Source: Mycobacterium sp.
Lineage (GTDB): Bacteria > Actinomycetota > Actinomycetes > Mycobacteriales > Mycobacteriaceae
NCBI GenBank assembly: GCA_051306235.1
Contig: JBPPMV010000474.1
Span: forward strand, 1-50,994
Reading direction: 5' to 3'
DNA length: 50,994 nucleotides
The position numbers and the translations under genes are program-made. Positions within the stretch are counted from its first letter, which is position 1. Each line of letters starts with the position of its first letter. Below, piece by piece: positions 4,896 through 40,037 of the stretch. Under the pieces are notes generated by a model, which saw nothing but the letters and a program-made list of their open reading frames with translations, had not been told where the DNA came from and ran no database searches.

Positions 4896-5733
4896 GACTG
4901 GCCTTTCGCATCCGACACTGTTGCTGAACGACGGTAATTCCATTCCTGCGGTTGGGTTGGGAGTCTGGCAGACCCCGGCCGAGGAGACCCGAGGGGCCGT
5001 CGAGGCCGCGCTGTCGACAGGTTACCGGCATATCGACACCGCCGCGGCCTACAAGAACGAAACCGAGGTCGGTCAGGCGCTCAAGGCCAGCTCCGTGCCG
5101 CGCGAGGATGTGTTCCTCGTCACCAAGCTGTGGAATGCCGAGCACGGATATGACAAGGCCCTCAAGGCGTTCGACGACAGCGCCAAGCGCCTCGACGTCG
5201 ACTACGTCGATCTGTATCTGATCCACTGGCCGATGCCCGAGGTCAACCAGTTCGTCGACTCCTTCAAGGCGTTGACTGCCCTGCAATTCGAGGGCCGGAT
5301 CAAGTCCATCGGTGTGAGCAATTTCGCGCCCGAGCATCTGCGAACCCTGGTGGACGGCACCGGGATTGTGCCCGCCGTGAACCAGGTCGAGTTGCACCCG
5401 CGGTTCCCCCAGCAGGAGTTGCGGGAAGTGCACGCCGAGATGGGTATCGCCACCGAGGCGTGGAGTCCGCTCGGACAGGGTGCGTTGCTGAGCGACCCCA
5501 CGGTGGTCGCAGTGGCCGAGTCGCACCACAAAACCCCAGCCCAGGTGCTGATCAGATGGCATCTGCAGCTGGGTAATATCGTCATTCCGAAGTCGGTGAA
5601 CCCCGACCGGATAGCGAGTAACTTCGACGTGTTCGATTTCGAACTGAGCGCGCAGGACATCGAGTCCATCGCGACACTCGATGACGGCACACGACTGGGT
5701 CCCGATCCGCGGACCTTCAACTGGACAGGCTAG
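4894..5733 (+). CDS. Aldo/keto reductase (2,5-DKG reductase-like), copy 1
   Basis: [45 protein letters not shown] and IPKS motifs; 279 aa from MTGLSHP. Confidence 0.93.
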   Translation: MTGLSHPTLLLNDGNSIPAVGLGVWQTPAEETRGAVEAALSTGYRHIDTAAAYKNETEVGQALKASSVPREDVFLVTKLWNAEHGYDKALKAFDDSAKRLDVDYVDLYLIHWPMPEVNQFVDSFKALTALQFEGRIKSIGVSNFAPEHLRTLVDGTGIVPAVNQVELHPRFPQQELREVHAEMGIATEAWSPLGQGALLSDPTVVAVAESHHKTPAQVLIRWHLQLGNIVIPKSVNPDRIASNFDVFDFELSAQDIESIATLDDGTRLGPDPRTFNWTG

Positions 5734-5739
5734 GTAGAC

Positions 5740-6579
5740 ATGACATCGGCAGCCGCGGCGCCAAACATCGGTTTGAGCGACGAGAACACCATTCCCGCTC
5801 TCGGGATCGGAGTGGGCGGACTCTCGGACACCGAGGCCGAGCACGCGGTCGCCGCAGCACTGAAAATCGGTGTCCGCCTTATCGATACCGCGGCCGCCTA
5901 TGGCAACGAGGAAGGCGTCGGCCGGGCCATCGCGGCCTCCGGTGTGCCGCGCGCCGAGATCTTCCTCACCACCAAATTGGACATTGCGGATCTGGGATTC
6001 CAGGCCTCCCAGGATGCCGCGAGGGCCAGCCTGGCGCGGCTGGGCCAGGAGTACGTCGATCTCTATCTCATCCACTGGCCCGGCGGTGAGGGCGGTAAGT
6101 ATGTGGACACCTGGGGTGGACTCATGCGCGTGCAGGGCGACGGGCTCGCCAAATCGATCGGCGTCGCGAATTTCACCCCGGAGCACCTGTCCACCATCAT
6201 CGACCTGACCTACGTGGTGCCGACGGTCAACCAGATCGAGCTGCACCCCCAGCTGGTCCAGACCGAACTGCGGGCCGCGCACGCCGAGCACGGCATCGTC
6301 ACGCAGGCCTACAGCCCGCTCGGCGTCGGCAAGCTGTTGGAGCACCCGACGGTCACCTCGGTCGCAGGCGAGTACGGCAAGACACCCGCGCAGGTGCTGA
6401 TCCGCTGGAACCTGCAGCTGAACAATTCGGTCGTGTTCCGGTCGTCCTCACCGGAGCGCATCTCGCAGAACTTCGACGTGTTCGACTTCGAGTTGGCCGC
6501 CGAGCATCTGGCGGCGCTGACCGGTCTCGACGACGGCACCCGGTTCCGCCCGGATCCGAACACCTACATCGGCGAGTAG
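5740..6579 (+). CDS. Aldo/keto reductase, copy 2 (Rv2971-like)
   Basis: [18 protein letters not shown] and NQIELHP motifs; 279 aa. Confidence 0.93.
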
Positions 6580-7699
6580 CGATTTCGGCGCGCCCACCGA
6601 ACGTCAGCGCCGCAACGGCGCTAAGGCCGGCGATGACGAAACACAGTGCGGTGTACCAGAGACTGCCGATCGGATCGCCGTTGTCGGTGACGCCGTCGAC
6701 GGCGCCGAAGTAGGCGGGCAGCGCGGTCACCCACAGCACCCCCATGACGGCCAGGTAGGCCAGACCGAAGCGCACCATCAGTGGACTGCTGTAGCGGGAT
6801 TCGGTGGCGCCGGCCGGCGTGCTGCGCAGCCGTTGCCATTGTTTGAACAACACCGGCGCCGCGACGACGGCGATCACCACGAGTTCCAGCGCGTACACCA
6901 CGCCCATCACGGTGACGTTGGTGAACGACCCGATGATCGTCGCGGGCGAGGGCAGCAGCACCGTGCCGATGGACGCGAGCACCCCGATGACGATGGTGCG
7001 CCACACGATCTGCACACCGGTGAACCGCTGTCCCCGGTCGACATGCTTGCCGACGAAGAACTGCACGCAGAAGGCCAGCGACATCGGCCACAGTGCGGCG
7101 AACACCACGACGCTGGGCAGCGGTACCGACGCCAGGAACGGCTGGTTCATCGGGTGGTCCAGGGTCCACTCCCACCAGCGCAGCTGCGGGCCGAGGTGAT
7201 CGAAGATCTCGTAGAAGGCGTGGTGCACGAATCCCACGCACACGGCCCCCACCAACGTCCCGTAGCGGCGGAACACCCCCAGGTTACGGACGATCTCGAA
7301 GGCGATCGTCGCCACCATCGGATAGATCGCGACGATGTAGAGCGGCAGCCGCCCCCAGAGGAATTCGACCGTGAACACGTTGTGCGCGAACATCGTGTCG
7401 ACGTACTGGTCGATGCCGAACTGCGCCGGGAAGTACAGCGGCGGTTCGATGATCAACAGATAGGCGATGGCGCCGAACCACAGCGCGATGTTGGTGGCGT
7501 CACCGTGCCGACGCAGCCGGATGACCGCGTACACCAGTGCCAGGATCGCGCCGAGGATCACCGTCAGCTCCAGCACCGGCAGCGTCCAGTTCTCCAGGCC
7601 GAACGGGCTACGCAGTTCCACCAGCCCGCCGGCCTCGGCACAGGAGAAGCCCAGGCGCTCGGCGAGTTGCTCGAACGTCGGCGCACACAGATCAGACAT
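6353..7699 (-). CDS. Multi-pass membrane protein of unknown function; the C-terminal tail reads antisense through AKR2
   Basis: Starts MSDLCAP, overlapping the upstream stop at 7692-7694; about 9-10 hydrophobic segments. The first in-frame stop is at 6353, so the functional end is uncertain (~6590). Confidence 0.75.
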
Positions 7700-11548: not shown

Positions 11549-11591
11549 GATGTTAGCGCAATGGCCCTTTCGCGCAGGACAGGACACATCG

Positions 11592-12821
11592 ATGGTTTCA
11601 CCGGCATCACCACGGCGGTCGGCATCTCGGCGGTACGCGATCAGACTGACGCTGGCGCTGATCACCGTGGTGGCGCTCGCCGTGGGGTTGACGGCGTGCG
11701 GCACATCTACCGCACCCCCGTCCGCGCAGCCCGTCATCGACAAGGGCACGCCCTTCGGTGACCTGCTCATCCCGAAACTGCAGGCATCAGTCACCGACGG
11801 CGATATCGGGGTCTCGGTCGACGAGCCGGTCACCGTCAGCGTCGAGGCCGGCGTGCTCGGCGAGGTGACCCTGGTCAATGCGCAGGGCCGGGTCGTCGAC
11901 GGGGAGCTGAGCCCCGACGGCGTCAGCTGGCGTTCGGCGGAACCGCTGGGATACAACAAGGAATACACCCTCGATGCCGATGCCTTCGGCCTGGGCGGGG
12001 TGACCCACACCAGCGCCACCTTCGAAACCCATTCGCCGCAGAACCTCACCATGCCCTACGTCGTGCCCGCTGACGGCGCGGTGGTCGGCGTCGGTCAGCC
12101 CATCGCGGTGAGCTTCGATGAGGTCATCCCCAATCGGGTGGCCGCGCAGCGCGCCATCACCGTCACCACCACACCCGCCGTGGAGGGCGCGTTCTACTGG
12201 CTCAACGGACGCGAAGTCCGATGGCGCCCCGCGCAGTACTGGAAGCCCGGTACCACGGTGGAAGTGCAGGTGAAAACCTACGGTGTCGATCTGGGCGACG
12301 GACTGTTCGGCCAGGACGATGTCACCTCCCGGTTCACCATCGGCGATGAGGTCATCGCGACCGCCGATGACGCCACCAAGACTCTGACGGTCCGCGTCAA
12401 CGGCGAGGTGGCCAAGACGATGCCGATCTCGATGGGCAAGAACTCCTCCCCCACCGATAACGGCACCTATATCGTCGCCGAACGCCTCGCCGACATGGTG
12501 ATGGATTCGTCGACGTATGGCGTGGCGGTGAACTCACCCGATGGCTACCGCACCGAGGTCAAGTGGGCCACCCGGATGTCCTACAGCGGGATCTTCGTGC
12601 ACGCGGCGCCCTGGTCGGTGGGCAGTCAGGGCCGCACGAATGTGAGTCACGGCTGTCTCAACGCGAGCACCGAGAACGCGAAATGGTTCTACGACAACAC
12701 CAAACCCGGTGACATCGTCGACGTGGTCAACACCGTCGGGCCGGCGCTGCCGGGCACCGACGGCCTGGGCGACTGGAACATCCCGTGGGAGCAGTGGAAG
12801 GCGGGTAACGCCGCGGCCTAG
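11592..12821 (+). CDS. L,D-transpeptidase lipoprotein (LdtB/LdtMt2-like)
   Basis: Lipobox LTAC, Ig-like domains, catalytic [21 protein letters not shown] and C-terminal [10 protein letters not shown]. Confidence 0.93.
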
Positions 12822-12840
12822 TGGCCGTCTCACCCGGTGA

Positions 12841-13755
12841 TCAGTGATGGCAGATCAGGTTGATGACGAGCGGCGCGCCGGAGATCACCGCGATGGTCGT
12901 CCACACCATCAATCGGTGACGCTGCAGACTCGCCCGTCCAGCCGGGACGAGTAGCCGGTTGGCCCGTAAGGCAATTGCGGTGGCACCGACTGCCAGACCC
13001 GCCGGTTGCACGGGGCCGGCCAACTCCAGCATTCCTGCGACCAGGGCACGGCTGCCGTGCCGCCGGGCGGCGATGTCATCGGCGCACATCTCCAGCAGAG
13101 CGGCGACCGCCAAAGCACCGCGGGTGAACAACGGTAGGCGCGACAAAGTGCCGGACAGTGCGCGCAGGATCATCAGTGTCTGATGATGACGTCCGGCGAT
13201 ATGGGCGTTCTCGTGGGCCAGCACCGCGTTCAGCTGCGGTTCGGTCAGCCGCTGCACGGCCGCGGACGTCACCACGATGGCATTGGGGCGGCCGAGGACG
13301 CAGTAGGCCGCGGGACGTTCCGCGGTGAGCACGAAGACATCCGGGCGCTCGGTGGGCAGACCGAGCAGCCTTGCCGCGTCCGCATGCTCATGGCTGCGGG
13401 AACGCAGACCCAGCACCGCGCGAACAACTTTCAGGCCCACGGCGGCGGTCAGGATCACTCCGCCGGTGATCAACATGAGCAGGCCGGGCAGCCCCGGGGT
13501 GGCGATCTGCTCGGGGAGGCCGAGCAGTTCCAGGCACACGACGAGCACCGGTGAATCCGGAAGGCCCCGTAGCCCGTTGACGACGATGAGGGATACCGCC
13601 ACCGTCCACGCCACCAGGACGCCGGCGATCGCGGTCAACCAGGCCGCTGCGCCCAGGCGCGGGTTCAGGCCGGTCCGGGTGAGCCGGGTCAGCAGCGGCG
13701 GTGCCAGCCAGGTCACCATCACCCCGTAGAGCAGCAGATAGACCGCAGCGGTCAT
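12841..13755 (-). CDS. M56/M48 family membrane metallopeptidase (BlaR-like, no sensor domain)
   Basis: TM segments, AVLAHENAH (HExxH) and LLEMCADD; coupled to BlaI. Confidence 0.9.
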   Translation of the reverse strand: MTAAVYLLLYGVMVTWLAPPLLTRLTRTGLNPRLGAAAWLTAIAGVLVAWTVAVSLIVVNGLRGLPDSPVLVVCLELLGLPEQIATPGLPGLLMLITGGVILTAAVGLKVVRAVLGLRSRSHEHADAARLLGLPTERPDVFVLTAERPAAYCVLGRPNAIVVTSAAVQRLTEPQLNAVLAHENAHIAGRHHQTLMILRALSGTLSRLPLFTRGALAVAALLEMCADDIAARRHGSRALVAGMLELAGPVQPAGLAVGATAIALRANRLLVPAGRASLQRHRLMVWTTIAVISGAPLVINLICHH

Positions 13756-14135
13756 CGGCGGCGCTTCTGGGTGCTCGACGACCGCAAAACCGCCTTCAGT
13801 TGGGCGGATTCGTCGGGCGACAGATGCTCGATGAAGAAGGCCAGAACGGTCTCGGGCTTGCCACCGGACTCGAACGCGGCCCGCATCAGGTGGGCCGAAC
13901 GCTCCTCACGGGTCATGGTCGCCCAGTACCGGTAGGCCTTCCCCTCGCGCTCACGGCGCACCCAGCCCTTGCGGTGCAGATTGTCCAGCGTCGAAAGTAC
14001 GGTCGTATAGGCGATCTGCCGTGCGTCGGCCAGTTCCTCGAACACGCCACGGACGGTGACACCGTCCTCGCGGTCCCACACCCGGTCCATCACCGTGGCC
14101 TCGAGGTCGCCGAATCCTCGTTGCTGCATGCGCAC
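13752..14135 (-). CDS. BlaI/MecI/CopY family transcriptional repressor
   Basis: GDLEATVMDRVW...AYTTVLSTLDNLHRKGWVRREREGKAYRY. Confidence 0.93.
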   Translation of the reverse strand: MRMQQRGFGDLEATVMDRVWDREDGVTVRGVFEELADARQIAYTTVLSTLDNLHRKGWVRREREGKAYRYWATMTREERSAHLMRAAFESGGKPETVLAFFIEHLSPDESAQLKAVLRSSSTQKRRR

Positions 14136-14251: not shown

Positions 14252-15106
14252 ATGGGGAACTGGGAACACCAGGTGCAGTTCGGTGTGACCACGCCCGGGG
14301 GCCCATGCGCCACCGAGCAGATCGACGCCGTCACCACCCTGCTCGACAGGGTTCCTCAATACCTACTCTGGTACCAGGATTTCGCGTCTACACCGCCGGG
14401 GAAAGAGCTCGATGCGGCCGGGCGACTGGGTGCCTACCCGGTCATCACGTGGGAACCGTGGACGGGTGCCGACCGCGGGCCCGACACGATGCGCCGATTG
14501 GCCTCCGGCGCGCTGGACGAGTATGTGCACGAATGGATCACCACGCTGCGAGATTGGCAACGGCCGGTTTATTTGCGATTCGCGCACGAATTCAACGGTG
14601 ACTGGTATCCCTGGAGCCCTGCGGGCGGCACTCCGCCCGATGCATACCTGTCGACGTGGCGTCGAGTGCACGACATCTGCACCGACACAGCCGCGACCAA
14701 CGTGCAGTGGATGTGGTGCGCGGATGCGGGCGGACCACACCAAAAACACCTCCTCGACTGGTATCCCGGCGATGAGTTCGTCGACTGCTTTGGTGTGGAC
14801 GGCTACAACTGGGGCACATCTCAGCCCGGCACGTCATGGCGGGAAGCCGCGGATATCCTCGACAACGCGTTGGCGCAGACGGTGGGCTTGGCCGATGGCC
14901 GACCCGTTCTGATCTCGGAGGCCGGCTGCGCCGAATCCGGTGGCAGCAAACCGAACTGGATCATCTCCTTCGTCGACTACGTGCGCCGCCATCCCGCCGT
15001 GGCGGGCTTCATCTGGTTCGATCACGACAAGGAAACCGACTGGCGGATCGGCAGCACTCCGCAGTCGGCGGCCGCGATGCGCAGCGCGTTGAGGGAGCGA
15101 CGATGA
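14252..15106 (+). CDS. Glycoside hydrolase family 26 (beta-mannanase-like), no signal peptide
   Basis: ITWEPW, LRFAHEFNGDWYPW (acid/base Glu), YPGDEFVD..GVDGYNWG and ISEAG (nucleophile Glu). TAACCT lies 7 nt upstream of the ATG at 14252. Confidence 0.85.
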   Translation: MGNWEHQVQFGVTTPGGPCATEQIDAVTTLLDRVPQYLLWYQDFASTPPGKELDAAGRLGAYPVITWEPWTGADRGPDTMRRLASGALDEYVHEWITTLRDWQRPVYLRFAHEFNGDWYPWSPAGGTPPDAYLSTWRRVHDICTDTAATNVQWMWCADAGGPHQKHLLDWYPGDEFVDCFGVDGYNWGTSQPGTSWREAADILDNALAQTVGLADGRPVLISEAGCAESGGSKPNWIISFVDYVRRHPAVAGFIWFDHDKETDWRIGSTPQSAAAMRSALRERR

Positions 15107-16341
15107 GCGATCCATCCTTCGGAACCCGCTTTGTGCTGCCGCCCGAGGTGGAGGCCGCGCGGGTACACGCGGTGGATCAGCTCTATCTGCTGGACTCTCC
15201 CCCCGAGGACCGGTTCGCCAGGGTGACCAGCATGGCGCGTTGCGCTCTGGGCGTGCCGATGGCGGCGGTGTCCTTGGTCGCAGCCGACCGGCAGTGGTTC
15301 AAGCAGGCAGATGGCCTGGACCTCGACGGCAGCATCCCGCGCGATCAGACGATCTGTCAGGCCACCATCGCACGAACCTACGATGACGATCTCGATCCCT
15401 TGCTCGTCATAGAGGACACCCGCCGGTCCGAGTTCGCCGAACTGCCGGCGATCCGCGCCGAGGGCGGTATCCGGTTCTACGCGGGGTATCCACTGCGCGG
15501 CCCGGGCGGCCATGCGGTCGGCACTCTCTGCGTCTATGACACCTGCCCGCGCACGCTCGACGCCGGGCAACGGCGCACGTTCGTCGAGCTGGCGGGCTGG
15601 GCTGAACGCGAACTGCACAGTTCGGATGATCTGGAACGCGCCGCCGCCGTGCAACGTCAACTGCTCCCGCCGCCGCTCGCCGATCTGCCCGGCTACACGG
15701 TGCACGCGCTGTGCCTGCCGGCCTTCGCGGTCGGCGGCGATTTCTACGACCACTACCTGGTGCCCGGCGGGGTCGTGTTCACCCTTGCCGATGTCATGGG
15801 CAAGGGTCTGGCCGCTGCCATCCTCACCGCGACGGTGCGCTCGGCATTGCGCGGAGCGTCCCGTGTTGTCGAACGATCGGGTGCCCACGCAGATATCGCC
15901 GACGCGGTGAACGCGGTGGCCCACCAAATCTCCGACGACTTGAGCTGCACGGACAGCTTCGTGACCCTGGTGCACCTGATGCTGCGCACCGAGGACGGCG
16001 TACTGGATTATGTCGACGCGGGCCACGGGTTCGCACTCCACGTCCGCGGCGACGCGACGGTGGCACAGTTACCCGGCAGCGGACTTCCGCTGGGCGTGAT
16101 CCCGGACGAGATCTGGACATCGCGACGGGTGCACCTCGCACCCGGCGAGAGTGTCGTGCTGGCCTCCGACGGCGTGCTGGATCTGGTCAGCGACGGTTGC
16201 GATATCGGGCCTGCCCTGAGCTTCGTCGCCGAGCATGCCGATCCGGCCGAGTTGTGTGCCCGGATCCGCGCCTTGTCGGCTGCGCGCCCCGCGCTCGATG
16301 ACGTAACCCTCGTCGCCATCCGCCGGGAGCCGCTGACATGA
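15103..16341 (+). CDS. GAF-domain PP2C/SpoIIE phosphatase (RsbU-like)
   Basis: GAF (IRFYAGYPL..GTLCVYD) plus VGGDFYD, ADVMGKG, AGHG, LASDGV and DDVT motifs. Confidence 0.92.
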   Translation: MSDPSFGTRFVLPPEVEAARVHAVDQLYLLDSPPEDRFARVTSMARCALGVPMAAVSLVAADRQWFKQADGLDLDGSIPRDQTICQATIARTYDDDLDPLLVIEDTRRSEFAELPAIRAEGGIRFYAGYPLRGPGGHAVGTLCVYDTCPRTLDAGQRRTFVELAGWAERELHSSDDLERAAAVQRQLLPPPLADLPGYTVHALCLPAFAVGGDFYDHYLVPGGVVFTLADVMGKGLAAAILTATVRSALRGASRVVERSGAHADIADAVNAVAHQISDDLSCTDSFVTLVHLMLRTEDGVLDYVDAGHGFALHVRGDATVAQLPGSGLPLGVIPDEIWTSRRVHLAPGESVVLASDGVLDLVSDGCDIGPALSFVAEHADPAELCARIRALSAARPALDDVTLVAIRREPLT

Positions 16342-18329
16342 CGCACCGCCATCCGGACGCCGAGGTCGGCCGATACCCGTCACCGTGGCTGCGACTGCTG
16401 ATCCTGTGCACGGCGCTGCTGGGCATCAACTACATCATCTGGCGGTGGACATCCTCGCTGAACTGGTCCGCGTGGTGGATAGCGGTGCCACTGGTACTGG
16501 CCGAAACCTACAGTGTCATCGACTCGCTGCTGTTCGCCATGACGATGTGGCGGGTGCTGCGCCGCCATCCACCACCGCCACCTCCTGAGGGCGCCACCGT
16601 CGATGTACTGATCACCACCTACAACGAACCCATCTCGATGGTGCTGGACACCGCGCGAGCTGCCCAGGCCATCCATTATCCGCACAGCACCTGGATTCTC
16701 GACGATGGCAATCGGCCCGAACTTCATGCCGCTGCAACGGAACTCGGCGTGGGTTACGTCACCAGATCGGCAAGTTGGGATGACAAACCGCGCCATGCCA
16801 AAGCGGGCAACCTGAACAACGCGCTGTTCGAGACGGACGGCGAATTCATCCTCGTCCTGGACGCCGATCAGGTGCCAGACCCCCGCATTCTGGACCAGAC
16901 GCTGGGGTATTTCCGTGACCCCCAAATGGCGCTGGTACAGACACCGCAGTACTTCCACAACGTGCCCTTCAGCGATCCGCTGGGCAGTCAGGCACCGCTG
17001 TTCTACGGACCGATCCAGCAGGGCAAGGACGGCTGGAACGCAGCCTACTTCTGCGGATCGAATGCGGTGCTGCGACGCGAGGCACTGATACAACTCGGGA
17101 TTCGCGGCTATGTCCAGGCGGTCGAGGATGGCATCAAACGCACCCTTTATGCGGCCAGAAAGATGCTCAAGACTGCTGCATCGCAGGCAGATTCAGACCA
17201 TCCCGCAGTGCGGGCAGCGCTACAGTCGGTGCGCGAAGCGACCGCCGATGCCCGCAGGCAGCTGCGCGACAAGCGCGAACTGGCCGATATCACCTACGAG
17301 TTCCAGCAGCGGGTGGATGCCGCCGCACGGTCGGTGGTCGACGCGGATGTGACGGCGATGCGCGCCGATCTGGAAGTGATCACCGCGCTGCGGGACAACC
17401 CCGAACACACGTCCACCGCAGTCATCTTCGACGACGCCGCACTCACTTCGCTGGCGGGCCGGGAGTGGTCACCGCTGGGTGCCATCGAATCCATCGGCGC
17501 CATGGTCCGCGCAGTGGACGTCGGACGCGACGACGAGGCACAGCCCATCCTTCCGATGGCCACCATCTCGGTGACCGAGGACATGGCCACCTGTATGCGA
17601 CTGCACGCGCACGGCTGGAAATCGGCGTATCACCACGAAGTGCTGGCGCGCGGCCTGGCTCCTGACGATGTGCGCACCATGATGACCCAACGGCTGCGCT
17701 GGGCCCAGGGTACGGTCCAGGTGATGCTGAAGGAAAACCCCTTGGTGCAAAAGGGTTTGAGCATCGGCCAGCGCCTGATGTATTGGTCCACGATGTGGAG
17801 CTACTTTGCCGGTTTCGCCGCCCTGGCCTATATCGCCGCGCCCGCGATCTATCTGATATTCGGCATCATGCCGGTATCGGCGTACAGCTGGGACTTCTTC
17901 GGTCGGCTCATACCCTTTCTGATCCTGAATCAATTGATGTTCGTCATCATCAGCCGTGGCACTCCGACCTGGCGGGGCCAGCAGTACAGTCTCGCGCTCT
18001 TCCCGGTGTGGATCCGGGCGTGTGTCACCGCGTTCCGCAACGTCTACTTCGACCGGCCGTTGGGATTCGCGGTGACACCGAAGACGAAGCAGACGGTCGA
18101 CTCCATCCCGTGGCACCTGGTGAAATGGCAACTGGCAGCCATCGCGATGCTCGTGGTGGCATCCGCGATCGGCATCGCGAATCTGTACTTCGGCGCCATC
18201 TCGGTTCTGGGCGTCGGTGTCAACCTGTTCTGGGTGATTTTCGACATCGTCATCCTGAGCGTGGTGTTCCAGGCCGTCCGCTATCGGGGCCATGAACCCG
18301 AGGTCACCGACAATGAAGGAGTGCCATGA
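16338..18329 (+). CDS. Cellulose-synthase-like processive GT2 glycosyltransferase with an internal helical insert
   Basis: DVLITTYNE, DDG, HAKAGNLN, DAD, QTPQ, TED, QRLRW and FAVTPK gating loop; TM helices at both ends; no PilZ tail. Confidence 0.9.
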   Translation: MTHRHPDAEVGRYPSPWLRLLILCTALLGINYIIWRWTSSLNWSAWWIAVPLVLAETYSVIDSLLFAMTMWRVLRRHPPPPPPEGATVDVLITTYNEPISMVLDTARAAQAIHYPHSTWILDDGNRPELHAAATELGVGYVTRSASWDDKPRHAKAGNLNNALFETDGEFILVLDADQVPDPRILDQTLGYFRDPQMALVQTPQYFHNVPFSDPLGSQAPLFYGPIQQGKDGWNAAYFCGSNAVLRREALIQLGIRGYVQAVEDGIKRTLYAARKMLKTAASQADSDHPAVRAALQSVREATADARRQLRDKRELADITYEFQQRVDAAARSVVDADVTAMRADLEVITALRDNPEHTSTAVIFDDAALTSLAGREWSPLGAIESIGAMVRAVDVGRDDEAQPILPMATISVTEDMATCMRLHAHGWKSAYHHEVLARGLAPDDVRTMMTQRLRWAQGTVQVMLKENPLVQKGLSIGQRLMYWSTMWSYFAGFAALAYIAAPAIYLIFGIMPVSAYSWDFFGRLIPFLILNQLMFVIISRGTPTWRGQQYSLALFPVWIRACVTAFRNVYFDRPLGFAVTPKTKQTVDSIPWHLVKWQLAAIAMLVVASAIGIANLYFGAISVLGVGVNLFWVIFDIVILSVVFQAVRYRGHEPEVTDNEGVP

Positions 18330-18661
18330 GCCAGTTCGCCACCCGCACCGCAGCATCGGGCGTCACCGTGGTCAAACCCGCAGGACGTCTCAACATGGTC
18401 GCCGCGCCCACGCTTCGCAAGGAACTGCATACGATCGTCGACAGTGGACAGAGCCGTGTGGTCGTCGACCTCAGCGAGGTCGACTTCATCGACTCATCTG
18501 GCCTCGGTGCCCTGATCTCCGGGCTGAAGATCGCCCGCCAAGCCGGCGGTGATCTCCGCATTGCCGCCCCCACACTTCAGGTGATCACAGTCCTCGAGCT
18601 CACCAACCTGAACCGTGTTCTGCGTGCACATCCCGACGCCGACAGCGCCTTCGATGACTGA
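18326..18661 (+). CDS. STAS-domain anti-sigma factor antagonist (RsbV/SpoIIAA-like)
   Basis: VVVDLSEVDFIDSSGLGAL with the conserved phospho-acceptor Ser. Confidence 0.93.
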   Translation: MSQFATRTAASGVTVVKPAGRLNMVAAPTLRKELHTIVDSGQSRVVVDLSEVDFIDSSGLGALISGLKIARQAGGDLRIAAPTLQVITVLELTNLNRVLRAHPDADSAFDD

Positions 18662-19064
18662 CCCCGACGCGGTGGTGCTGGACACCGTCACCGGAGCGGA
18701 CACCTTGGCCGCCATTCAGCAGACCCTGGACACGGTGTGGAAGCACAACGAGATTCCGGAAATGGTGCGCCTGCATATGGATCTGGCGGTGGGCGAGATC
18801 GCCGCCAACATCATCGAACATTCCGGCGACGGGCAGCCCGTACATCTACGGATGACCATCGAACTGACCACCGACACCATTCGTGCCGTTTTCACCGACG
18901 ACGGGCACCCCACACCCATGGACCTGAGCCGCCTGCAGATGCCCGACGAGACGTCCGAGCGTGGACGCGGACTCGCGATCGCCTACCGGGTGCTCGATGA
19001 ACTGTCCTATCGTCGCGACTCCGAGGGAAACCATTGGACGTTGGTGCACAGCCGCGCGGAGTGA
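18654..19064 (+). CDS. Anti-sigma-type serine kinase / HATPase_c ATP-binding protein (RsbW-like)
   Basis: LAVGEIAANIIEH (N box), TDDG (G1) and ERGRGL (G2). Confidence 0.9.
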   Translation: MTDPDAVVLDTVTGADTLAAIQQTLDTVWKHNEIPEMVRLHMDLAVGEIAANIIEHSGDGQPVHLRMTIELTTDTIRAVFTDDGHPTPMDLSRLQMPDETSERGRGLAIAYRVLDELSYRRDSEGNHWTLVHSRAE

Positions 19065-37538: not shown

Positions 37539-38822
37539 TTGGCCACCGCACGAATGTTGCGGAGGTCCGGTTTTGGCACCACCGGAACCGAAGTCGATTC
37601 CGTGGTCCAACGGGACTGGTCGGCCTATCTGGACGAGGCGCTGGGAGCGAACCCGGACGCAGATCCCGGAGCCGTCGCCACTCCGATGGGCTCCTACTCG
37701 ACCCCCGCGCTGCCCGCGAGCGAAGCCACCACAGCGCCCTTTGTGAGCAGCATGCTGGCCCAGATGCAGGACCTGTCCGGCTGGTGGATACGTCGGATGG
37801 TCGCCGTGCGCCAACCGATCCACGAGAAGTTGACCTTTGCCTGGCACAACCATTTCGCCACCTCGGCCGAGAAAGTGGTCGCCGCGGAATTCATGGCGGC
37901 CCAGAACCAGACCCTGCGCACGCACGCCCTCGGCGACTTCCGCGATCTGGCCTACGCCATGCTGACCGACTCCGCGATGCTGCGCTGGCTCGATGGTCTA
38001 GGCAATACCAAAGAGGCGCCGAACGAGAACCTCTCCCGGGAGTTCATGGAACTCTTCGCCCTCGGCCATGACCACGGCTACACCGAAGCCGATGTGCGCG
38101 AGGGAGCGCGGGCACTCACCGGTCGATTCGCCACCCTCGGGAGCGGAACCACCTTGTTGGCAGCGCATCACGACAGCGGTTCCAAGACGGTTCTCGGCGT
38201 CACCGGCCCACTCGGAGACACCGAATTCTGCGATATCGTCCTGGCCCACCCCGCCTCGGCACGCTTCGTGAGCACGAAACTGTGGCGCCTGTTGGCCTCC
38301 GACACGAACCCCGGCCAGGCCGCCTCGGACCGACTGGTCGCCGCCTACGGCCCGAACCGGGATCTGAAAGCCTTAACCAAGGCCATCTTTCTGGACCCCG
38401 ACTTCACCGCCGCTGCCGGTACCGCGGTCGTCACACCCGTGGATTGGCTCGTCGGGATGCTGCGTTCGTTATCGGTGCCACTCGACGGCCCGGACACGCT
38501 GACCGCCTGCGATGTCGTACTCAAGGTGATGGGCCAGCGCCCCTTCTCGCCACCGGATGTCGACGGATGGCCGCAGGGCCGGGTGTGGCTGTCCAATACG
38601 AGTGCGGCCGCGCGGGTCTGGGCGGCCGACCGATTCGTCACAAGGGGTGACCTCTCGCCGGTGGCCGACGCCTCCCCCGTCGACCGTGTCGATGCCGCGG
38701 GCTACCTGCTCGGGATCGGCGCCTGGTCCGACACGACCGCCGGGGCGCTCACACCGCTGGCCGGCGATCCGGAGCGCCTGCTCACCGCCGCGGTCAACAC
38801 ACCCGAATATCTGACGGTGTAG
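37539..38822 (+). CDS. DUF1800 family protein
   Basis: RRSGFG, WW.RRM, EKLTFAWHNHFATS, M..WLD, PNENLSREFMELFALG, YTE.DV and PPDVDGW. The start codon is uncertain. Confidence 0.85.
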   Translation: MATARMLRRSGFGTTGTEVDSVVQRDWSAYLDEALGANPDADPGAVATPMGSYSTPALPASEATTAPFVSSMLAQMQDLSGWWIRRMVAVRQPIHEKLTFAWHNHFATSAEKVVAAEFMAAQNQTLRTHALGDFRDLAYAMLTDSAMLRWLDGLGNTKEAPNENLSREFMELFALGHDHGYTEADVREGARALTGRFATLGSGTTLLAAHHDSGSKTVLGVTGPLGDTEFCDIVLAHPASARFVSTKLWRLLASDTNPGQAASDRLVAAYGPNRDLKALTKAIFLDPDFTAAAGTAVVTPVDWLVGMLRSLSVPLDGPDTLTACDVVLKVMGQRPFSPPDVDGWPQGRVWLSNTSAAARVWAADRFVTRGDLSPVADASPVDRVDAAGYLLGIGAWSDTTAGALTPLAGDPERLLTAAVNTPEYLTV

Positions 38823-38831
38823 AGGACGAGC

Positions 38832-40037
38832 ATGCCGGATATCAATCGCCGCAGATTCCTGATCGCCAGCGCGGGGGCCGCAGGCCTGGCCGCGGCCGCC
38901 GGCGCGGCCGTCGCCCTGCCCCAGATGTTCGAGCGGGCCCAGCAACAGCCGTTGCCCGCCGACGCCGGGATCCTGGTGATCATCACCCTCTACGGCGGGA
39001 ATGACGGTCTCAACACCGTGATTCCGTTCACCGACAACGCCTACTACGACGCGCGTCCCGATCTGGCGTTCGCACCGGAGACCGTTCTCGATCTCGACGG
39101 TGAGGTCGGACTCAATCCTGCGCTGACCGGTCTGGCGACAGCGTGGCGCAACGACAACCTGGCCATCATCCGCGGGGTCGGCTACCCGAAACAGGATCGA
39201 AGTCACTTCCGCTCCATGGACATCTGGCAGTCGGCCTCCCCCGAGGATCCCACCGCAACCGGGTGGATCGGCCGTTGGCTGGACGCGGGCGGGGACGATC
39301 CGCTGCGCGCCGTGAACATCGGGACGGTGCTTCCGCCGATGGCCATTGGTCAAAAGCACACCGCCGCCGGGCTTTCCGCGACCATCCCGAGGATGCCCGA
39401 GGGTATCCCCGTCGTCCTGGACGCGATGAGCGCACCCGATGAACACGACACCCCCGCCATGGCGGCCGTCCGCGCCGACTACCGGGCCTACCGGAGGACC
39501 GATGACACCTTCCGCACCTTCACCGACAGTCCGCTGCCGCCGACCGCGGCCACCGATATCGCCAAGCAGCTGGCCGACGATCTGGAACTTGTGGCCCAGT
39601 GCGTGCGGGCCGGGGTTCCCACCAAGGTGTACATGGTCTCGCTCGGCGGTTTCGACACCCACGCCAACGAGCGCGGCGACCAACAGCACCTGCTGACAGC
39701 TCTCAACGATGCCATCACGCCGTTCCTCAAGCAGATGCGCAACAGTGCCTACGGCAGGCATGTGGTGACCATGATCTATTCGGAGTTCGGCAGGCGCGTG
39801 GCCGCCAACGCGACTCAGGGCACCGACCACGGCACCTCGGGGCCGGTGTTGGTGATCGGCGAGTCAATCCGGGGCGGGTTCTACGGTGACGCGCCGAGCC
39901 TGACCGACCTTCGCGACGGCGATCTCAAGACGACGACCGATTTTCGTGACGTCTACCACGAACTGCTCGGACAGACGCTTCGCACCGACCCGGAGCCGTC
40001 TGTCGGACCCGGACGGCGCGATATCGGCTTTCTGTAA
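38832..40037 (+). CDS. DUF1501 family protein with Tat signal
   Basis: INRRRFL twin-arginine motif; GGNDGLN, RSHF, GWIGR, GGFDTH, SEFGRR, GTDHG and DFR motifs. Confidence 0.88.
   Translation: MPDINRRRFLIASAGAAGLAAAAGAAVALPQMFERAQQQPLPADAGILVIITLYGGNDGLNTVIPFTDNAYYDARPDLAFAPETVLDLDGEVGLNPALTGLATAWRNDNLAIIRGVGYPKQDRSHFRSMDIWQSASPEDPTATGWIGRWLDAGGDDPLRAVNIGTVLPPMAIGQKHTAAGLSATIPRMPEGIPVVLDAMSAPDEHDTPAMAAVRADYRAYRRTDDTFRTFTDSPLPPTAATDIAKQLADDLELVAQCVRAGVPTKVYMVSLGGFDTHANERGDQQHLLTALNDAITPFLKQMRNSAYGRHVVTMIYSEFGRRVAANATQGTDHGTSGPVLVIGESIRGGFYGDAPSLTDLRDGDLKTTTDFRDVYHELLGQTLRTDPEPSVGPGRRDIGFL

Follow-up and report, generated by a model that had tools for sequence, protein, structure and literature searches.

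Synthase-dependent polysaccharide systems are, according to a review, commonly activated by cyclic di-GMP (c-di-GMP) (PMC8892547), and the partner switches RsbU/V/W of Bacillus subtilis and RsfB-RsbW2-RsfR/RsfS of Mycobacterium smegmatis, made up of a phosphatase, a STAS protein and a serine kinase, are reported to end on the sigma factors SigB or SigF (PMC10950880). Two other described systems lie closer to the locus presented here. In Vibrio fischeri the free STAS protein SypA, when unphosphorylated, is reported to promote a polysaccharide biofilm below the level of transcription, and the face with which it binds its kinase is proposed to serve for another partner as well, with kinase and phosphatase united in the single protein SypE (PMC10120452). 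In Anabaena PCC 7120 the partner-switch proteins HenR, All4160 and Alr3423 are reported to control a polysaccharide enzyme by means of a SpoIIE phosphatase, an RsbW-type kinase and a STAS domain that is active when non-phosphorylatable, in the available account with no sigma factor; All4160 is a Bac_transf-type glycosyltransferase with the STAS fused at its N-terminus, and the report leaves the mode of STAS action unsettled (bioRxiv 10.64898/2026.04.08.717354). The window analysed here is a stretch of 50,994 nucleotides, contig JBPPMV010000474.1 (C474) of a 5.6-Mb Mycobacterium sp. genome that is 91% complete, and at positions 14252–19064 of its forward strand it carries an operon in which regulators of these types bracket a BcsA-like glycosyltransferase of family 2 (GT2). 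We propose, with a probability of about 65%, that an insertion in this PilZ-less synthase is the docking site for the STAS protein encoded directly behind it. Binding of the unphosphorylated STAS to the insertion would switch a presumed beta-glucan synthesis on, phosphorylation of Ser57 by the kinase would switch it off, and the GAF-PP2C phosphatase, on receiving its signal, would dephosphorylate the STAS and switch synthesis on again, the STAS alternating between kinase and synthase as partners.

The cassette would thereby work like SypA/SypE and All4160/HenR, and stand outside both the canonical Bcs systems, lacking PilZ and BcsB, and the sigma partner switches, lacking a cognate sigma factor. 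The proposed polarity, with the unphosphorylated form active, matches by analogy what is reported for SypA and All4160. Unlike All4160, the window has a processive BcsA-type GT2, a separate STAS (with C-terminal fusions confined to a sister clade) and a dedicated insertion as the predicted dock; unlike SypA, whose target is given as unidentified (PMC10120452), its STAS has a target that can be named and modelled, and its kinase and phosphatase are two proteins. A literature search, in which most subscription papers were beyond reach, found no publication describing a system of GT2 insertion and STAS. If true, serine phosphorylation of a small partner would here gate a synthase of the BcsA type, through an interface that can be tested residue by residue, and the system would offer a concrete model for the question of what is targeted by STAS proteins that, like SypA, control polysaccharide below transcription.

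The synthase (16338..18329, 663 residues) aligns with E. coli BcsA in two blocks, residues 13–254 and 408–642 against BcsA 193–447 and 450–684, and BcsA is also its closest solved relative in sequence (E 9e-66). The predicted structure (predicted local distance difference test, pLDDT, 73) shows the BcsA membrane and glycosyltransferase fold, with 9b8v as the best Foldseek match (E 2e-26, TM-score over the query, TMq, 0.66). All catalytic and gating-loop motifs of BcsA (E. coli 7lby/9b8v, Rhodobacter sphaeroides 4p00) are intact, namely DDG, DxD, TED, QxxRW (here QRLRW) and FxVTxK, each of them found in 76–80 of 80 homologues. In contrast to BcsA there is no PilZ domain, as had been claimed from the sequence; about 12 residues follow the last helix (6–36 residues among the homologues), and RxxxR occurs in the last 35 residues of only 4/80 GT2 homologues. 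BcsC is likewise missing, and the stated absence of bcsB near the operon extends beyond it, with no match to PF03170 in the locus or anywhere else in the 91%-complete genome; no PilZ match was found in that genome either. The sequence-only reading was right about the identity of the GT2 but overlooked an insertion of 153 residues (residues 255–407; 17100..17558), which the BcsA alignment places between the FxGS and TED motifs, ahead of the TED helix, where E. coli BcsA has about two residues, and which is predicted to fold as a helical bundle.

No Pfam family was found for the insertion. Fold searches turned up nothing more specific than helical bundles of a generic kind (best Z 9.9, root-mean-square deviation 5.2, 130 residues aligned), Foldseek gave no match at E≤0.001, and plant CesA fragments from the ESM Atlas scored 0.81, which is below the reliable range. 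The insertion lies at a position similar to that of the class-specific region of plant CesA, which we take to be a likeness of place and not a demonstration of homology. A profile search of 1.84 billion representatives returned 82 matches, and of the 38 that were scanned 33 were GT2 proteins, three had no family and two were unrelated repeats. Two full-length insert-bearing paralogues, P0129 and P0132, have altered TED and QxxRW motifs; these are possible pseudo-synthases and group with the Mycobacteriales clade.

The RsbU/V/W-type set in the window is complete, with all motifs intact. The GAF-PP2C phosphatase of the SpoIIE/RsbU type (15103..16341) has GGDFYD, DVMGKG, SDG and DD, and the serine kinase (18654..19064), of the RsbW/SpoIIAB-type GHKL family (HATPase_c_2), has E48/N52, DxG and GRG; a single-sequence search of the PDB with the kinase gave no match, a profile-based search matched RsbW. 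The single-domain STAS (18326..18661) carries D56-S57-S58-G59, and Ser57 (codon 18494–18496) is the predicted phosphoacceptor since that of SypA is the first serine after the aspartate (PMC10120452). In distant pairs the STAS is the most conserved regulator (54%), followed by the phosphatase domain (40%) and the kinase (31%). A GAF domain had been suggested as the input, and it is present in the window and in 8/14 phosphatases scanned, whereas 4/14 have a receiver domain and 2/14 neither; among relatives the sensor is swapped between GAF, receiver and membrane inputs. That part of the proposal which concerns the intact motifs, the insertion, the gene linkage and the fused and serine-less variants is read from sequence.

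Modelling of the STAS with the GT2, one of the checks proposed earlier, was performed with the full synthase, our own alignments of 46 rows and three controls. Docking was predicted with a score of 0.66 against 0.00 for the best control, the runs agreed in at least 98% of the contacts, and the pLDDT of the partner was 84; the score mark is reached by 116 of 157 solved pairs and by 2 of 215 mismatched pairs. We know of no solved STAS-synthase complex that the predictor could have copied. The predicted contacts in the GT2 are residues 164, 167–169 and three patches, 247–263 (17076..17126, with G254 and Y258 near-invariant), 312–320 (17271..17297) and 394–404 (17517..17549, immediately ahead of the TED finger helix), and they form the base of the insertion beside that helix. 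On the STAS they are residues 24–28, 56–58, 60–72, 76, 78 and 92–100, so that the predicted interface contains Ser57. Within the insertion, conservation is higher at the predicted interface positions than elsewhere (0.63 vs 0.51, p 0.008, 90 sequences), a comparison that is partly circular. Three natural short-insert variants from outside the predictor input have up to about 65 residues deleted and have lost 0/21 of the insertion interface residues. Phosphorylation of Ser57 would be expected to break the contact, so that the STAS swaps between kinase and synthase, and STAS binding would be activating, perhaps through a shift of the adjoining finger helix.

The cassette was surveyed in the 80 best GTDB loci, whose flanks differ, and in 80 metagenome loci found via divergent homologues, L047 (genome G183) being excluded from all counts; an estimated 1300 GTDB stretches or so match the cassette patterns. 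The 80 GTDB loci belong to Mycobacterium, Rhodococcus, Gordonia, Williamsia, Dietzia, Geodermatophilus, Nocardioides, Arthrobacter, Microbacterium and Acidimicrobiia, and a full-length copy is present in 4/400 genomes phylum-wide. Within Mycobacterium the distribution is patchy, with 25/300 genomes (about 8%) at E≤1e-60, of which 23 have the full insert and two the fused form only. The cassette is thus present in a mycobacterium, as had been said, but it is pan-actinobacterial and patchy and not a mycobacterial trait. According to a review no bcsA homologue has been reliably identified in M. tuberculosis (PMC8892547), and for the genus the present survey supplies a BcsA homologue in about 8% of genomes. 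The odds are slightly in favour of a widespread family of BcsB-free beta-glucan synthases, in which the c-di-GMP/PilZ arm is replaced by a helical insertion that receives a phosphorylation-gated activating STAS subunit, so that the partner switch would act on a processive membrane polymerase, with mixed-linkage glucan possible in actinobacteria including some mycobacteria.

The association of the GT2 with STAS, kinase and PP2C proved to be conserved in this survey of gene neighbourhoods. The STAS gene follows the GT2 gene in 79/80 GTDB loci, the kinase is present in 78/80 (L128 and L134, the two misses, are contig ends), and PP2C also in 78/80, being absent from L079 and L129, broken in L063 and moved in L087 and L102. 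Among 187 GT2 frames, 25 had no measurable gap, 11 had no insertion, one was mis-measured and 150 had the insertion. In the 133 of these with at least 400 nucleotides downstream, a few of them duplicated loci (e.g. L041/L123), the STAS adjoins the GT2 in 129; it does so also in L272, where it was overlooked by the STAS profile, and in L046 the three regulators are inverted (divergent) yet adjacent to the insert-bearing GT2. The insert of L242 is of full length. No STAS was found beside any of the 22 insert-less homologues that have flanking sequence (L048–L059, L259–L262, L264, L265, L267, L269–L271), where one weak kinase match was seen. Kinase and PP2C are rearranged in L102, L196 and L246 (PP2C-kinase-GT2-STAS) and fused in L228, the place of the STAS being constant. 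In L228 a single polypeptide, PAS-PAS-PP2C-kinase (4911–6977, bifunctional like SypE), precedes a short-insert GT2 and a STAS on a contig of 59% GC. A second STAS-kinase pair is located upstream of the phosphatase in L225, L229, L241 and L256; two pairs flank the cassette in the first three, and L256 ends inside the GT2. Locus L081, titled Kitasatospora arboriphila, has the gene map of Williamsia muralis L076/L082 and is possibly mislabelled or contaminated.

In three Mycobacterium genomes (G802, G709, G828) GT2 and STAS are fused in frame to proteins of 760–771 residues in which the insertion is shortened, no membrane helix is lost, and a linker leads to a STAS at the C-terminus, where BcsA carries PilZ. 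Three further database proteins have this architecture, one of them 92% identical to L276, and in three genomes of another genus the same short synthase is followed by a free STAS. In the six fused or free-STAS loci D-S-S-G is replaced by T-P-S-G/A or G-A-S-G, with loss of Ser57 and retention of Ser58, and no kinase or PP2C was found in the fetched DNA of these six. The active site of their synthases is intact, two GH26 genes are present, and a galU-like gene lies beside one fusion. Synthases without a kinase thus keep a STAS that cannot be phosphorylated at this position, indicating that the STAS is retained for the synthase and pointing to the unphosphorylated state as on. If so, the serine-less fusions would represent glucan synthases in one compact chain that need no second messenger. 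The database records P0208, P0209, P0215, P0216 and P0238, which also appear as GT2-STAS fusions, were rejected; they are singletons in which the last membrane helices are replaced by out-of-frame sequence, indicating frameshift artefacts of overlapping genes, and one of them is annotated as anti-sigma factor antagonist in a Streptomyces record. P0210 and P0184 look likewise frameshifted or chimeric.

As had been noted from the sequence, no sigma factor or GGDEF gene is nearby, and on contig C474 neither sigma70_r2 nor GGDEF gave a match. In 3/80 GTDB loci a sigma match is located within about 8 kb, on the opposite strand, and no GGDEF gene was found in the 80. Sigma factors were searched with TIGR02980 in 54 cassette genomes (47 from the 80 GTDB loci and seven others), and its cut-off was exceeded in 22 of them. 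With the score level of primary sigma factors, about 139 bits, as the floor for matches of the SigB/F/G type, such a sigma factor was found in 39 of 53 distinct cassette genomes, including that of the window, and not found in the other 14 (15/54 counted), among which are two complete Pseudarthrobacter chromosomes and two 100%-complete assemblies. A SigB/F/G sigma factor is therefore unlikely to be the general output, and other sigma classes may take that role. Although the cassette shares its protein types and phosphoacceptor motif with the Rsb and Rsf switches, its regulators are tied to the synthase also in SigB/F/G-negative genomes. The suggestion that the synthase is controlled post-translationally through STAS phosphorylation and not through a sigma factor is supported by the conserved association, the 14/53 sigma-negative genomes, the predicted docking and the fusions. 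Its further descriptions are weaker: a biofilm exopolysaccharide is a putative output, and independence from c-di-GMP is tentative, the window genome having 20 GGDEF matches, none on the cassette contig, and an upstream c-di-GMP input being possible. Twenty GGDEF matches without a PilZ match are unusually many cyclases for a mycobacterium.

Several observations weigh against the proposed docking switch. The genome of the window has its own usfX-sigF elsewhere (C2, SigF 308 bits) and, separate from the cassette on C394, a locus that by its similar arrangement is named rsfB-rsbW2-like; the M. smegmatis rsfB-rsbW2-rsfR locus likewise has no adjacent sigma gene and is reported to control SigF at a distance (PMC10950880). 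With the 20 GGDEF matches elsewhere, this makes the local absence of sigma and GGDEF genes weak evidence. The complex score is a measure of model confidence, and its calibration is only approximate for our own alignments. The deletions in the short-insert variants might spare the base of the insertion for structural reasons alone, and the predicted STAS surface overlaps the kinase-binding face, known from SpoIIAA, which would explain its conservation equally well. Two insert-bearing synthases, L207 and L248, have no following STAS, and in L199, whose short flank places it outside the 133, the kinase comes directly after the GT2. The STAS profile is biased towards its family, as seen with L272, and the 0/22 may conceal remote STAS genes. 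Insert-bearing synthases form one clade (support 0.79), as do the serine-less and fused forms (support 1.0), so the co-occurrence counts represent retention after about two events and not independent trials. Supported tree splits are shared with the GT2 in 11/11 cases for the STAS and 9/11 for the kinase, which speaks for co-inheritance only and not for binding. Of the three fusion loci, two stop close to the edge of their contig; the Pfam matches of the fused STAS domains are weak (E 6e-8, 6e-8 and 0.005), and Ser58 is retained in them.

The alternative that survives best, though improbable, leaves the STAS on the synthase and changes the logic, the unphosphorylated form inhibiting, or the STAS being a constant structural subunit tuned by phosphorylation. 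The docking prediction is neutral as to activation or inhibition; a STAS seated against the finger helix could clamp it, and BcsA is reported to be autoinhibited until released (PMC8892547). However, a permanently tethered inhibitor should give dead enzymes, and the kinase-less variants, which keep or fuse a Ser57-less STAS, have an intact active site, two GH26 genes and, in one case, a galU-like gene; SypA and All4160 are also reported to be active when unphosphorylated. There is a smaller chance, of the order of one in ten, that the effector is another one, either the kinase, holding the synthase in the manner of an anti-sigma factor, or the STAS acting on some other protein, for example a diguanylate cyclase, as in the SiaC-SiaD pair of Pseudomonas. 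The kinase is the output of canonical partner switches and directly follows the GT2 in L199, and GGDEF genes are at hand, with the 20 matches in the window genome and one gene in the cassette locus L240. Nevertheless, the kinase has the lowest conservation of the core parts (31%), moves or fuses with the phosphatase (L246, L228) and is lost where the STAS stays, and the 80 GTDB cassette loci gave no GGDEF gene. That the module is an additional trans input to SigF or another sigma factor in the manner of RsfB-RsbW2-RsfR, with the synthase only a co-transcribed target, has the M. smegmatis precedent (PMC10950880), the 308-bit SigF and the 39/53 genomes with a SigB/F/G-like score in its favour, but is the least probable, given the 14/53 genomes without such a match, the separate usfX-sigF and rsfB-rsbW2-like loci already in the window genome, and the insertion-STAS correlation, predicted interface and fusions, which it leaves unexplained.

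Judging by its motifs and nearest structures, the proposed STAS-gated synthase would make a beta-glucan in a UDP-glucose-dependent reaction, and the product would be (1,4)- or (1,3;1,4)-linked and trimmed by the GH26 hydrolase. The GH26 of the window (14252..15106, Pfam PF02156) is nearest to the Clostridium thermocellum lichenase CtLic26A (PDB 2bv9, E 3e-42, vs E≥4e-9 for mannanases) and keeps the catalytic acid/base and nucleophile, E113 and E223 in the alignment with 2bv9. In contrast to CtLic26A, reported as a degradative beta-1,3/1,4-glucanase (PMC10470212), it belongs to a biosynthetic operon and has no signal peptide. Signal and lipoprotein peptides are lacking in the Mycobacterium copies (the window, L060–L074, L091), and the copies in Rhodococcus, Gordonia and Dietzia are lipoprotein-like. 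The gene is accessory, being absent from many cassettes, and it also flanks insert-less synthases (6/12 genome controls). Since the GH26 is far closer to CtLic26A than to mannanases and a GH16 gene flanks several cassette loci, a mixed-linkage (1,3;1,4)-beta-glucan is plausible, with somewhat less than even odds.

A fusion of a GH26-like domain with an OpgC acyltransferase, about 730–850 residues (Pfam checked on one), lies beside the cassette in eight loci, directly behind the kinase in L043, L094, L099, L105, L125 and L137 and on the opposite strand in L104 and L118, suggesting acylation of the glucan. It is conceivable, if rather unlikely, and compatible with STAS gating, that the synthase makes a short glucan, acylated and bound to the envelope, of the osmoregulated periplasmic glucan type and not a long biofilm fibre. 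The eight fusions, six of them directly behind the kinase, and the Mycobacterium GH26 copies without signal peptide would fit this, as would the lack, among the surveyed loci of mycolic-acid genera, of a conserved export gene beside the cassette. On the other hand the synthase retains the full BcsA translocation fold, and acyltransferases are reported to modify long secreted cellulose as well (PMC7710045).

The five genes are co-directional and joined by four overlaps, as described from the sequence, with ATGA at 15103, 16338 and 18326 and ATGACTGA at 18654–18661. Such overlaps join 826 of 3284 co-directional neighbours (25%) in the window genome as called by our own gene caller, so four consecutive ones are expected by chance in about 0.4% of cases; the chain is the mark of an operon and nothing exotic. 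A promoter and terminator scan gave signals at chance level only. The closest named relatives of the window cassette are found in Mycobacterium aurum and Mycolicibacterium bacteremicum. GT2, STAS and kinase have a GC content of 62–63% compared with 67% for the genome, which is consistent with the patchy distribution of a probably mobile cassette. Divergent from the operon, at 11550–14135, are an L,D-transpeptidase and a pair of a BlaI-like repressor and a BlaR-like M48 peptidase; these flanking genes were excluded as parts of the cassette, being present in 2/80 loci, the closest relatives L060 and L091. Further downstream (37539–40037), between iclR and gltX, is a DUF1800-DUF1501 gene pair.

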